31,090 bases of DNA from a virus (taxonomy: Duplodnaviria; Heunggongvirae; Uroviricota; Caudoviricetes). The notes under the pieces are model-generated. The model saw nothing but the letters and a program-made list of their open reading frames with translations, ran no database searches and was not told the DNA's origin. Of this stretch, positions 3 through 24,772 are shown one piece after another. Location of the stretch: positions 1-31,090 of the IMG/VR virus record IMGVR_UViG_3300028534_000019; one strand, 5' to 3'. Within the stretch, counting starts at the first letter, position 1. The number at the start of each line of letters is the position of its first letter. The translations under genes and the position numbers were made by a program.

Positions 3-3000
3 GAGGTTGTAATTTATAAAAAACATATCCAAAGTGATGCTTTTATTGATGAGTTAGGGAAATGGGAAATTCTTACAATAAAAGAAAAAATTATTGATGA
101 AGATGGTATTCATTATTCAATTAAAAATCCACCTGATTTAGATTATTCAGAACATAATGTAATATCAAGTATGAGTTTAGTTTATCAATTTGAATTTTTA
201 GAAATATTTAATAACAAATATTATAGAATGAATGAAAATAGTAATAGAACTACTTGGGTTCCGAATTACGAAGAATATAGTGATTGGAATGAGATGTTAA
301 TTTCATACCCTACATCAATCTTTTTTATAAAGTCTAAAAAAGGTATTAAGATAAATTCAAATGCTTATATTGGTTCTTTTTATGGTTATAATGGTGCTTA
401 TGGTTACTATAAAAGATATAGAGGTGATGCAATGCACTATTATTTTGCTTCTTGCGGCCCGAATGGTTCAGGTAGAATAAAAAGTGAAAGTTATGAAAAC
501 AAAGATTTAATGGATAGAAGGGCTGTACCTTGTAATTTAATAAACAAAGGTGACCCTAGAAATAATCTTCAAGAAACATATGAAATGGCTCATAGACCCG
601 GAGGTTTTGGTAATAATGGTTTAAAACATACAGATAATACATCTTATAGTACAAAAATGCCTAAATCTGATGATTTATCAGAACAAATTTATAATGGTGT
701 AGGTGCTGGATGTCTTGTTTTCGGTACTCATACCACTAGTAGTGGTTTTGGTGGTGATACATACCAAGCAAATAATATTATAGGTTCTTGTGGTGGGGGT
801 ATTCTAATAATTCAAACACCAAAAATAGAATTTGTAGATGAAACATCAAGATTATTAGCATACCCAGGAACTAGAACAACTAGAAGAAGGTCAGGTAGAG
901 GAGCAGGTGGTTCTTTATTATTAAAAACAGAAGAAGTTTTGGTACATAGTATAAGAAATTGTAATACAGGTAATTTATCAGAAGAGAATACTTATATCAC
1001 AAACTTTTGGTTAGGACATTATGAAACAGCACATATTGATTATTTTAATGCCCAAGGACAAGTGCAATTTGAAATAGATAGGTTCGTTGTAGAAGTAGAT
1101 GATAATAAAACAATTTATCAATGGAGTGATGATACTCTTACATTAGATGTACTATCAGAATATATTAGAACAAGTGCTATTAATAGAAAGTTTAAAGAAT
1201 TAAATCATACTGATGATACTGATGATTATTTTAAAACAGATGGTGATTGGAATAGTTATGATTTAGGTTATGACCACGGACATTTAAGCCCTATATATGA
1301 AGATGGATATTATTATAAATTATATACTAAAGGATATGCTAATATTGATATTTCAATTTGGGGTAAAATATTAGGTTATTTATCTAGTTATTCAATTCCT
1401 TTAGGAACTGAAATTAAGGTTGCTTTTAGTATTGATAATGGTGACAAATGGTTTACATTAGAAAGTGATGGGGTAAATATTTCACTTTTAAATATTGATG
1501 AAACTTCACAAGAAGATTTAGGAAAATGTATAAATTTAGAAAATCTATTAAATGTTGAAGATTGGTTTGGTTTTACTAATATTTTTATAAAAAATCAATC
1601 AAGTGATGAAAGTAAAACTATTGATATAGCAATAATACTCAAAACATCTAAATATTGGGTTTCACCTGAGATTAAAAATATTGAGGTAGAATATGAAAAT
1701 TTAGGAAGTATTGTTAATCCACCAATTCAAATTAATCCTTATAATGGAGAAGAATTTAATAATGAATATGTAAATTTTGTTTGGTTACAACCATTACAAG
1801 AATCAGGGTCATTACAAAATAGAATTGAAATATCAACAATACCAAATTTTTCATATACCAAAAAACAGATTATTAAAAATTTTGAAAATGGTTATATTGA
1901 TGATAGTTTTATATTACCTTATTCGGCAGTTGATTATGATGGATACAATGATATAACTGATTTTTTAAAAACACCTTATTTAATTGAAAGAGGTACAAAT
2001 ACTGATATACAAGAAGAAATAGATACTCTTAGTTTTAGTGTTGATTATGATAATAATAAAATAAATTATGATGGCTCAGATAAAATATTCTATAAAGGAC
2101 AAACAATTATTACAGGTTCATCAAATATTGATTTACCAATAGAAAACTTTAAAATAGATTATAGTAATGTACCTAAAAGTTCTGATGTTACAAATTATAT
2201 AGATTTTTGTGTTGATGATGTTAGTAATATTTCTGATTCAGTTGCTTCTAATGTGTCATTAAAAGATTATGATTTAATTGATTACAGACCTCACTTTCTA
2301 TATGGCAATACAATTGTTTGCGATGCTGGTGAAGATGGTTATGTAGATTTAGCAATAGATGGTACAAATGAGGAAGATATTCCTAATATATTCTTTTATG
2401 ATAAAGATGCTACATTAACAGTAAAATTTTATATTGATGATTTACAAATAAATGGAAATGCTACATACCCAACTTATTTTTCAATTAGTGTAGGTGAAAC
2501 AAATGTTTTTAAAATTGGTTTAGATTATAGACTTATAAATGGTGTATATAAATCAGGACTAAGATTAACTTTTCAATCAGCAGGTGCTTATGTAATGTAT
2601 GGAGATATATTAACAATAGGTGGTGAAAATATATTAAGTATTGTTAGAAATGATGGTAACATTTCCTTATATCTTAATGGTGTTCTAATTAAGAAAACAT
2701 TGCCGAGTACAACTGATGATTTTATAGACCCAATAGGCTCAGAATGTCATTTTAGACTATTTAAGTCTTTTGATTCTGATACATATGATGTATATGCTTC
2801 TGTAATAGAATTAATTCATCATAATGATTTATTAATATATGATGAAATTAAAGAACTTCATAAAGTACCAAATTATAAATTATTTTATGATTTTGAAAGT
2901 GGTATCATAGAAGCAAAAAGAGTTCCATATAATGGTTTATGGGAAGGGAATGATATATTGGAAAAACTTGATTATGTTTCAAATAATTCATATTCAAGAA

Positions 3001-22540: not shown

Positions 22541-24772
22541 TTAAATAGCATTTATTTCTATTGTTTCATATGGTGTTGTTGAAACACTTTTTTCCAATTC
22601 TATTATCTCATTATAAAAACCATTATTGAAATTTGTTTTCATTTTTACACTTTGAGCATCTTGTTTTGAAAAATAATTAACACTTATAGTTTCATCACAA
22701 TCTTTATCAAACTCACTAACAATTGTATTAGTTTCTCCCCAAAGTTCCCCACCTATTTTATCAATTTCTTTGAAGTTATAATCATTATAATCTATTAATA
22801 AAGTCCAATGGTCACTATTAAATCTAGGTGATGATGTGTATTGCTTATCCCCATAATAATTCTCAATATCAGAAATATTTGTAAAAGTTGCTAAATCATC
22901 TCTACCCTCAATAGGTACATTTGTACCATTTCTACAAGTACACTTAAAATATTGGTTTAGAGTACATTTAACAGCAGTTATATCTTTACTTAATTCTGAT
23001 GTTTCACTTTCATACCCATTATAAAAACTAATAGTGTTTTTAACAGTTGCTTTATCATCTATTCTTAAAAAGAATGTAGGGTTATCAGTTAAACCATCAT
23101 ATTCAAATGTTTCACTATCATCTTCTGTATCTGTATCATCATAACTTTTATATTTTAATTTTGTTATTTCATAGTCACAATCAGTAACATTATCAGTGTT
23201 ATTTTGTGGAGTAAAAGTTGTAAGGTTTGTTAATGTTATTTCATCATCATCCCTTGTGACAATTTTATTTCTACCATAAAATTTTGTATCCCAAACAAAA
23301 TCGTGATTAATATGATATTTATCTGTTTCTATATTAGAATTTAAAGTTTTGGAAACATCTTGATAACCATCCCAATAACCAATAGATAATGAAGCCAAAG
23401 CCTTATCATCATCGTGATGCCAATATTTGATAAAAAAGGTTGGTTCTTCATTGAAAGAATCATCATTATCTTTTGAATAAGAAAAACTTTCATTATCATC
23501 ACTACCATCATTTTTCTTTTTTGTTATGCTCCAATCAACTGTTTTCCATTGAGTTGTACTATCATAATCTTGAGAAGCATTGTCACTTGAATTATTATGA
23601 AGAGTTACTAAATCATCATCACCCAAAGGAACTGAAACATCATTAACAGTATTATTTTTTTCATCAGTCCAATTGAAACTTAAAGAAATATTATAAACAT
23701 CTAGTATAGCATCTTTACTTAAAACTTCCTGTTGGTCATCAAAACCATCATTCCAATTTATTGTTAATTTTATTTCTCTTGTACCCTCAGAATTATATAA
23801 TTTAGTAGGCTCATATGTTTCATCTTTATCTGTATAAGTATCAGAATTATCAGTGCCATCTACTAGATAATCTTCTATAAACCAATCAAAACTAGCATTT
23901 ATCTGCGACCAAGTATCACCATAATTTGTATGTGATTGTTGAGTTGTATCCATTTCATCATCATTACCAACACCTATATGTTTATCTGTATTAAGAAGTT
24001 TTGTAAATGTAAAATCAAAATCAATAGTTGGTTTATTATATCTAGGCTCATATGTAAATGTTTCTTCACAATATATACCCAAATAATCATAAACTCTAAC
24101 AACTGTATTATATGTACCAGCATCCACCCATTTATAAGTTAAATCATCTATAACATCTAAAGTTTGGTTTGTTTCAACCAAATTATAATTAGTTTCTTTT
24201 ATATATCTACCTAAAAATAAATCTTGGCTATATTTTGTAAAATTTTGATATAAATCATCTCTTTCTTCATCCTCAGCAGTATAAGTCCACGGCCCGACAG
24301 GCACAGTTGAATTATTTTTAATAGTAAAATTATGTCCTGTATGAGAAGTATTATTATCATCAGGAAATGTTATATCACAAGATGGTGGTACTACATTAGG
24401 CATAACAAAAGCCTCAGTATAAGAACTTGAATCTGTATTAACAGTATGTATAAAATTAACACATCTTGATATTTTACCACTTTCTTGTGATGATTTATCA
24501 TCTACACTACTATCTTTATTATCAGCTAACCAAGCACAAATTAGTACAACATCTCCGTTATCTATTTTACCATCAGAACCTAAAAAACTATCATCTCCTA
24601 AGTTAAAAGATGTTTGTCCAACGCCATTAGTTATTTCTATTTCACCATTCCAAACTGAATCTGATGAACTACTATTTACTTTATAAAAATATGCTCTTAC
24701 TTTAGCATCAGCTATTTTTGTATCACCATCTTCTTCATATATATGACACTCTATACCATAATTTAAAGCCAC
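22541..24772 (-). CDS. Large acidic virion protein (743 aa): N-terminal NLGDD domain plus tandem PKD/Ig-like repeats
   Basis: GTG start after AGGAG. Repeats end in WNDG, YWDG, FYNG and FNNG, and the N-terminus is paralogous to 28722..30194. Confidence 0.7.
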   Translation of the reverse strand: MALNYGIECHIYEEDGDTKIADAKVRAYFYKVNSSSSDSVWNGEIEITNGVGQTSFNLGDDSFLGSDGKIDNGDVVLICAWLADNKDSSVDDKSSQESGKISRCVNFIHTVNTDSSSYTEAFVMPNVVPPSCDITFPDDNNTSHTGHNFTIKNNSTVPVGPWTYTAEDEERDDLYQNFTKYSQDLFLGRYIKETNYNLVETNQTLDVIDDLTYKWVDAGTYNTVVRVYDYLGIYCEETFTYEPRYNKPTIDFDFTFTKLLNTDKHIGVGNDDEMDTTQQSHTNYGDTWSQINASFDWFIEDYLVDGTDNSDTYTDKDETYEPTKLYNSEGTREIKLTINWNDGFDDQQEVLSKDAILDVYNISLSFNWTDEKNNTVNDVSVPLGDDDLVTLHNNSSDNASQDYDSTTQWKTVDWSITKKKNDGSDDNESFSYSKDNDDSFNEEPTFFIKYWHHDDDKALASLSIGYWDGYQDVSKTLNSNIETDKYHINHDFVWDTKFYGRNKIVTRDDDEITLTNLTTFTPQNNTDNVTDCDYEITKLKYKSYDDTDTEDDSETFEYDGLTDNPTFFLRIDDKATVKNTISFYNGYESETSELSKDITAVKCTLNQYFKCTCRNGTNVPIEGRDDLATFTNISDIENYYGDKQYTSSPRFNSDHWTLLIDYNDYNFKEIDKIGGELWGETNTIVSEFDKDCDETISVNYFSKQDAQSVKMKTNFNNGFYNEIIELEKSVSTTPYETIEINAI

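Follow-up and report, generated by a model that had tools for sequence, protein, structure and literature searches.

Introduction

Restriction-site avoidance is a known property of lytic phages and is strongest in non-temperate double-stranded DNA phages (Rusinov et al. 2018, PMC6286503); staphylococcal phages, for instance, lack both GGNCC and GATC (PMC6346686). Here we analyze a phage sequence in which avoidance takes a different form, the IMG/VR record IMGVR_UViG_3300028534_000019 of 100,859 bases, whose first 31,090 bases we refer to as the window. As in other site-avoiding lytic phages, short palindromic Type II words, including GGNCC (Sau96I-type) and GATC, are purged from it synonymously. 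Unlike those phages, which drop GGNCC and so Gly-Pro, this one keeps 17 Gly-Pro and 8 Trp-Pro dipeptides and writes them in a fixed CpG context.

The Bacillus phages SPR, phi3T and rho11s carry orphan or multispecific C5 methyltransferases that act on GGCC, GCNGC, CCGG and CCWGG. The same target families (GGCC, GCNGC, CCGG) are concerned here, and a phage enzyme could supply protection, but in those phages the whole site is methylated whatever its flanks and avoidance is needless, whereas here unflanked sites are purged. We rejected protection of the SPR/phi3T type: unflanked GGCC occurs 0 times against 18 expected and unflanked GCWGC 0 times against 27, and the 100 kb contain no match to PF00145. 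The RsrII/CpoI word CGGWCCG shares the seven-base palindromic pattern CGG-N-CCG and is present twice in the genome; however, the center is S in 13 of the 15 CGGNCCG copies, a form outside the specificity of RsrII, and the motif is enriched rather than avoided.

Digestion with Sau96I serves to verify CpG methylation by M.SssI (PMC1831492). Blocking by overlapping CpG or dcm methylation, in which methylation of the outer C protects GGNCC, has the same geometry as the exempt sites described below, but it is met as an in vitro nuisance or tool and not as genome recoding; in the present case, moreover, the modification is inferred and plain CpG specificity fits it poorly. We found no description of such a flank-context rule in the literature searched.

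Materials and Methods

The record is linear and 44% complete (CheckV, by which ~130 kb of the genome are missing), has a GC content of 26.4% and a coding fraction of 95% under code 11, and was found in an "epibiont metagenome" and several hydrothermal-vent metagenomes. It encodes T4-type gp32, RNase H, large terminase (TerL), gp5 and gp19-like proteins as well as SmpB and a transfer-messenger RNA (tmRNA). The phage is AT-rich, T4-like and from hydrothermal-vent samples; judged by terminase, the cultured phages closest to it are Vibrio phage phiKT1024 and the Campylobacter CP220-like phages, at ~40% identity.

Unless the window is named, counts refer to the whole record, and expected counts come from 200 within-gene synonymous shuffles that keep the protein sequence and codon usage. 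For the window alone, 1000 synonymous shuffles of its genes were used. We call a site flanked when an outer C then G, that is, a CpG touching the restriction word, is present on at least one strand.

Results

Forced restriction words lie next to a CpG

The 17 GGNCC sites of the record are its 17 Gly-Pro dipeptides, and all have at least one CpG flank. Fifteen read CGGNCCG and two have a CpG on a single side; the proline codon is CCG in 16 of them and the glycine codon GGS in 13. Both flanks are CpG at 15 of the 16 Gly-Pro dipeptides where this is achievable; one singly flanked dipeptide is preceded by Lys, which has no codon ending in C. The CGGNCCG copies are in frame as xxC-GGN-CCG without exception (15/15), with none intergenic and none in another frame, and no 7-mer of the genome is more enriched than CGGCCCG (13 observed vs 0.1 expected, z=26).

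The same rule extends to related words. Trp-Pro is written TGG-CCG in all eight instances, and each of the 24 GGCC sites is CpG-flanked, 13 within CGGSCCG, 8 at Trp-Pro and 3 in the form xxG GCC GCT, where two begin with the very rare codons TCG and ACG. All six GGNNCC sites are flanked as well. Compared to the shuffles, unflanked sites are missing throughout: GGCC has 0 vs 18.0 unflanked and 22 vs 3.6 with one flank, GGNCC 0 vs 15.7 unflanked and 15 vs 0.3 with both flanks, and GGNNCC 0 vs 17.5 unflanked and 6 vs 5.2 with one flank. For GCWGC the figures are 0 vs 26.7 unflanked and 3 vs 2.2 with one flank, all three survivors being GCWGCGG. Summed over GG(N0-2)CC, no unflanked site is present where 51 are expected. 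Spacings of N3 to N6 between GG and CC are ordinary relative to the shuffles, so the pattern is not general G/C clustering, and GATC has no comparable exemption (flanked copies 0 vs 10).

All 34 distinct GG(N0-2)CC sites are flanked, which against the genome's own CGG/CCG frequency gives a binomial p of ~3e-34. At these 34 sites and at the three surviving GCWGC sites, a G follows the outer C on one or both strands; since this C is the single base shared by all exempt families, one cause suffices. It is well supported that these restriction words are held in an exempt context, purged when unflanked and kept when flanked. The recoding is visible in codon choice: the proline codon after Gly or Trp is CCG in 24 of 25 cases, compared to 6% overall, and of the 53 CCG codons nearly all serve to escape a purged word. 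Gly-Pro is itself depleted (observed/expected 0.37, compared to 0.74 for Pro-Gly).

Seven sites make up the complete set of GGNCC, GGCC and GGNNCC words in the window:

257..263, + strand: GGTTCCG, Trp-Val-Pro as TGG GTT CCG; a forced GGNNCC, then G
455..461, + strand: CGGCCCG, Gly-Pro as TGC GGC CCG in the open reading frame (ORF) 171-4523; three rare codons, a CpG touching the GGNCC on each side
4226..4232, + strand: CGGGCCG, Gly-Pro as AAC GGG CCG in ORF 171-4523
10511..10517, + strand: GGTGCCG, a GGNNCC in Gly-Ala-Ala (GGT GCC GCT), then G; overlaps a GCCGC escape
16049..16054, + strand: TGGCCG, Trp-Pro as TGG CCG in ORF 15908-16264; the window's sole Trp-Pro
22143..22149, - strand: CGGCCCG on the coding strand, Gly-Pro as ACC GGC CCG, then GAG, in ORF 21666-22502; CCGG overlaps both sides
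24290..24296, - strand: CGGGCCG on the coding strand, Gly-Pro as GTC GGG CCG in ORF 22541-24772

The four GGNCC sites are all in-frame Gly-Pro in long ORFs and all read C-GGS-CC-G. At 16049..16054 the GGCC is forced and the T on its left is set by Trp; the right flank has been turned into a CpG. CGGSCCG is observed four times in the window against 0.01 expected, a number that none of the 1000 shuffles reached, and GG(N0-2)CC without a CpG flank is absent against 12.0 expected, as low a count again being found in none of the 1000.

A preliminary description of the window had located the Gly-Pro, Trp-Pro and Trp-Val-Pro sites, and all of its coordinates are correct. Its statement that every Gly-Pro is written CGG-S-CCG is exact in the window (4/4) and loosens genome-wide, where 13 of 17 have this form. 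Its GGNNCC tally correctly gave the site at 257 but was incomplete: it missed 10511-10517, which is also followed by G. The codons that it had called rare are rare: CCG makes up 6% of Pro codons and GGC plus GGG 12% of Gly codons, and TGC, AAC, ACC and GTC account for 3%, 12%, 2% and 1% of their respective families. Its central proposal, that unavoidable restriction words sit in a special context, agrees with the complete loss of unflanked GGCC, GGNCC and GGNNCC, the persistence of flanked copies and the like behavior of GCWGC. The flanks tabulated genome-wide against codon shuffles are not the ordinary A/T flanks that would have spoken against it.

The 9-mer GGCGGGCCG, encoding Gly-Gly-Pro, occurs five times (genome positions 39903-39913, 77767-77776, 78389-78399, 78579-78587 and 88478-88486). 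Three of the copies are in tandem tail-tube-like genes (77380-79025) that appear paralogue-like by size. The genome's longest stretches made up of G and C alone (9-11 bases) all coincide with Gly-Pro.

A broad purge of restriction words by synonymous codon choice

The flank rule stands within a much wider purge. GATC (0 vs 168 expected) and CATG (0 vs 95) are absent, TGCA (36 vs 209), ACGT (1 vs 37.5), AGCT (110 vs 310) and GCGC (1 vs 8) are reduced, and ~20 hexamer palindromes with 4-30 copies expected each are at zero, among them AAGCTT, GAATTC, GATATC, GTTAAC, GTATAC, CTGCAG, CAGCTG, TCTAGA, CTATAG, CTTAAG and ATGCAT. AACGTT, ATCGAT and TTCGAA each occur 0 times against 8-11 expected. Palindromes made of A and T only, as well as GTAC, are at unaffected levels, so the purge is not aimed at palindromes in general. 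As short palindromes are under-represented relative to a null that preserves protein and codon usage, and as GATC, CATG and the ~20 hexamers are missing altogether, the purge is restriction-site avoidance through synonymous codon choice. The genome is among the most thoroughly site-purged phage sequences that we have encountered.

The codon swaps behind the purge can be read directly. GCT is replaced by GCA after A and CAT by CAC before G (65 of the 298 coding CpGs); Ala-Ala is written GCS GCN and Pro-Gly CCS GGN. Correspondingly, GCWGC is found 3 times vs 29 expected and GCSGC 32 vs 4, and CCWGG 16 vs 31 and CCSGG 20 vs 6.5. CCGG (34 vs 22) and CCGC (49 vs 25) are enriched and hexamer palindromes containing CCGG are tolerated, while other CG words are depleted. 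Escapes of this kind in the window are:

4497..4501, + strand: GCGGC, Ala-Ala as GCG GCT, a GCSGC escape from the purged GCWGC
10370, 10514 and 10688: further GCSGC escapes
7722..7726, + strand: CCGGG, Pro-Gly as CCG GGT, a CCSGG escape from CCWGG
597, 19865, 22142, 25081 and 27051: further CCSGG escapes

Asymmetric words are also purged (AAGCT 9 vs 193, CCAGA 4 vs 80, CTACAG 0 vs 42, ATCTGG 1 vs 35, CCTTC 55 vs 108), which hints at targets of the Type IIS or Type III-like kind; HpyAV, for one, recognizes CCTTC. Pro-Trp is written CCG TGG in four cases (window 24290-24299 and 29856-29861; genome 79124 and 97951), a choice that keeps CCWWGG and CATG from arising. When Ile or Met follows, Pro is also often CCG (CCG ATA, CCG ATT or CCG ATG, 10 cases), for which we identified no reason.

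The recoding arose within the phage's own lineage

Contigs whose TerL is 56-73% identical to that of the phage have ordinary flanks and retain GATC and CATG; among the TerL homologues fetched in this range, none showed avoidance or the flank rule. Where these relatives write the orthologous Trp-Pro and Gly-Pro of the terminase as TGG CCT or TGG CCA and as GGT CCT, the phage has TGG CCG and GAC GGG CCG, so that compared to its relatives the protein is kept and the codons alone are changed. As the relatives are neither purged nor recoded, purge and recoding are both derived in the phage's own line of descent. This origin is shown by the data, as are the site avoidance, the codon changes and the rule on flanks.

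No close relative was found by a DNA search of the phage collection or by a gp32-based scan of viral contigs, and the protein collection has none at ≥90% identity. With the gp41 helicase of a relative as query, a scan for the missing half of the phage gave no match.

Some other viral sequences encountered in the searches have features of their own. One relative at 61% TerL identity (L009:2693-4572) encodes GTP cyclohydrolase I and PTPS/QueD beside structural genes, hinting at a modification of its DNA with 7-deazaguanine like that of CP220-type Campylobacter phages; genes of this kind are absent from the 100 kb of the present phage. In the viral loci L019-L035, L049, L054 and L060 (33-37% GC, up to 20 kb), GGCC, GGNCC and GGNNCC are absent or nearly absent against ~46 expected, so there is essentially no Gly-Pro or Trp-Pro in them. 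Several 20-kb loci lack GG(N0-2)CC entirely, which is the other way of dealing with such words and the one published for staphylococcal phages (PMC6346686). An unrelated jumbo phage of 215,686 bp and 47% GC (IMGVR_UViG_3300028914_000054; L132-L142) has no GATC, CATG, AGCT, GTAC, GCGC, GAATTC or AAGCTT and 9 GGCC vs 648 expected. We rejected it as a second case of the flank rule: it has 27 CGGWCCG vs 2 for the reversed control, but also 62 unflanked GGNCC, including many GGWCC.

Comparison of SmpB pointed to no informative host taxon. The tmRNA gene lies at genome 70542-70862 (L002:19542-19862), and its 3′ end, searched over 28 positions with three left as N, is shared with Candidatus Thiovulum, a Campylobacterales metagenome-assembled genome (MAG), Nostoc and several Mycoplasmataceae MAGs, of which one comes from the Snake Pit vent field, among others, making it a weak host marker.

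Discussion

A candidate cytosine modification

The most economical reading of the flank rule, and one that we consider on balance probable from the arrangement of the sites, is that an overlapping cytosine modification exempts flanked words. Under this reading, very broad restriction pressure would have led the phage to remove recognition words by synonymous codon choice. Words forced by the protein (GGNCC at Gly-Pro, GGCC at Trp-Pro and GGNNCC at Trp-x-Pro) could not go and would have been recoded with rare codons that place the outer C in a CpG, on both strands where the neighboring residue permits. The phage DNA would bear 5-methylcytosine (m5C) or N4-methylcytosine (m4C) at CpG, probably in the CCG/CGG context alone, written by a phage enzyme, whose gene perhaps belongs to the 56% of the genome that the record lacks, or by a host enzyme. 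With such a modification in place, endonucleases of the GGCC, GGNCC, GGNNCC and GCWGC types would be unable to cut, in the way that Sau96I is stopped in the laboratory when CpG methylation overlaps its site. We infer in this way the modification as the cause of the exemption, the cytosine that it would occupy and its possible writers.

The exempt sites share a candidate C that lies inside both the restriction word and the overlapping motif, as in overlapping methylation. If the first C of CCG were methylated, the mark would lie beyond the GCWGC sites that survive, which makes the CpG cytosine the candidate base. AvaII, NlaIV and TseI/ApeKI are all blocked by overlapping CpG methylation (supplier/REBASE). 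Context-free CpG methylation of the M.SssI type fits poorly: it should shield all words that contain CpG, yet ACGT, GCGC, AACGTT, ATCGAT and TTCGAA remain subject to the purge, and CCGG and CCGC alone escape it or are enriched. This same contrast favors a CCG/CGG context over every CpG, and the preliminary description, which had proposed a CG- or CCG-directed modification, is accordingly to be narrowed: plain CG fits poorly given the purge of ACGT, GCGC and the CG hexamers, and CCG/CGG fits better given the enrichment of CCGG and CCGC. Our more tentative suggestion, which we think somewhat less likely than not, is that modification of CpG in CCG/CGG may act as a general patch, with every forced word recoded to lie under it on both strands.

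A number of observations count against such a modification. ACGT and GCGC are purged even though their usual enzymes are CpG-sensitive, a misfit to a plain CpG methylase that a modification in CCG/CGG context, or endonucleases of differing sensitivity, would reconcile. To our knowledge, HaeIII is not blocked by m5C at the outer C, and we know of no CCG-specific methyltransferase. The 100 kb yielded no C5 methyltransferase (PF00145), no PF01555 N4/N6 methylase and no D12 methylase, no dCMP hydroxymethylase or other protein of the thymidylate synthase family, and, of the deazaguanine pathway, no TGT, QueC or QueD/PTPS; a single weak radical-SAM match lies at 38577-38906. This search for methyltransferase and hypermodification genes, which the preliminary description had put forward as a check, thus returned no cytosine enzyme from a record that is 44% complete, and with 56% of the genome missing the absence of a modifier gene is weak evidence. 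Among 400 Campylobacterota genomes screened for CGGNCCG against a reversed control, none with low GC had an excess; an excess was confined to GC-richer, CpG-rich genomes, in which sampled regions had ordinary flanks.

The sole DNA methyltransferase that we saw also argues on the same side. It is a protein of 197 amino acids with the motif DWIITNPPY, encoded at genome 75076-75669 (L003:4076-4669) directly downstream of the dCMP deaminase; it matches phrog_799 ("DNA methyltransferase") and has no Pfam or PDB sequence match, and its Atlas neighbors are viral class I methyltransferases of ~200 amino acids, some with Eco57I or MTS domains. The NPPY motif suggests an amino-methyltransferase, more often of adenine than of cytosine. 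Homologues are present in more than 600 cultured phages (of Escherichia, Vibrio, Campylobacter, Staphylococcus and Listeria), and 80 metagenomic viral loci with homologues do not share the flank rule: by the strict rule the binomial p is 3e-34 in this genome and 7e-6 in the next best of the 80 loci, the latter likely an effect of codon usage in GC-richer phages. Two loci are suggestive but weak, with 10/10 (L067) and 4/4 (L074) sites flanked, owing to high background CpG or small numbers. Given a widespread family and 80 homologue loci without the rule, we consider it unlikely that this enzyme is the shield.

Other explanations for the flank rule

The main rival, which we regard as unlikely though worth serious attention, is avoidance without any shield. 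Here the endonucleases of the host population would not cut, or would cut poorly, at sites flanked by C...G, either because their true specificities are longer (WGGCCW, GGWCC, RGGNCCY and others) or through intrinsic flank effects, and flanked words would simply be non-targets. That no cytosine methyltransferase was found in the 100 kb, and that ACGT and GCGC are purged as if CpG were unmodified, speak for it. Avoidance of WGGCCW together with GGNCC yields exactly the GGCC contexts seen outside Gly-Pro (TGGCCG nine times and CGGCCG twice), and avoidance of GGWCC, GCWGC and CCWGG accounts for the central S. The preliminary description had foreseen that several longer sites might explain the pattern, and in part they do, as WGGCCW and GGWCC explain the Trp-Pro choice and the central S; the double CpG flank is left unexplained. 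Five families (GGCC, GGWCC, GGSCC, GGNNCC and GCWGC) would each have to ignore the same flank, and known enzyme sets do not remove 15 of the 16 flank pairs of GGSCC. All 13 GGSCC sites have both rare flanks, though xxD-GGG-CCG and xxC-GGC-CCH satisfy words of the WGGCCW/GGWCC type. In particular, xxD-GGG-CCG suffices to escape WGGCCW, yet all eight such sites bear the rare upstream C, and the four surviving GGWCC sites all have a CpG flank despite GGS codons being free.

The remaining explanations account for less. A mutation or repair bias, either very-short-patch (VSP)-like T:G repair tied to host m5C methyltransferases or template switching at quasi-palindromes, strikes us as improbable. 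The products are perfect palindromes, and enrichment of CCGG with depletion of CCAG/CTGG (100 vs 230) is the direction of VSP-type repair, but the loss of CCAG is mostly that of one word, CCAGA (4 vs 80), and template switching at 26% GC should give A...T or T...A arms at least as often, of which none was seen. Any such bias would need to single out precisely the forced sites and act on both of their flanks (15 vs 0.3), and a zero count of unflanked sites requires purging and not creation alone. Still less probable is that CGGSCCG is a functional DNA or RNA signal (for protein binding, a pause or an RsrII-like 7-bp enzyme) that can be encoded as Gly-Pro alone. It is a perfect 7-bp palindrome and the top-enriched 7-mer, and GGCGGGCCG recurs five times; however, every Gly-Pro bears the motif, intergenic and other-frame copies are lacking, Gly-Pro is depleted, and TGGCCG, GGNNCCG and GCWGCG obey the flank rule yet share no 7-mer with it. 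The proteins with the five GGCGGGCCG copies, each encoding Gly-Gly-Pro, are P-loop or tail-tube-like. A seven-base signal should be independent of frame and of Gly-Pro, and we rejected it, as all 15 CGGNCCG copies are in frame. We give the least credence to a translational codon-pair effect, in which Pro after Gly or Trp would be decoded better as CCG. The 24 of 25 CCG codons in that position are as it predicts, but the codon ahead of Gly is likewise constrained to end in C, sites in other frames comply (TCG GCC GCT, ACG GCC GCT, GGT GCC GCT), the two DNA strands show the pattern symmetrically, it ends at spacing N3, and close relatives with similar codon usage lack it.

Implications

Avoidance is usually seen as all-or-nothing: either a word is lost, or modification makes its loss needless. 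In this phage the two strategies are apparently joined at single-codon resolution, removable words being removed and unremovable ones placed under an exempting flank. If the exemption is a cytosine modification, avoidance and self-modification would be coupled at the level of codons, and one methylase of low specificity would neutralize at least four families of cytosine-sensitive endonucleases (GGCC, GGNCC, GGNNCC and GCWGC). The specificity of an unseen methylase would then be readable from codon usage alone, and the retention of Gly-Pro and Trp-Pro, given up by other heavily restricted phages, would be explained. If it is not a modification, several restriction enzymes of an uncultured vent host would share blindness to a CpG flank, which would be new enzymology. 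In either case the genome is useful as a test case for inferring the restriction repertoire of a host from viral sequence.

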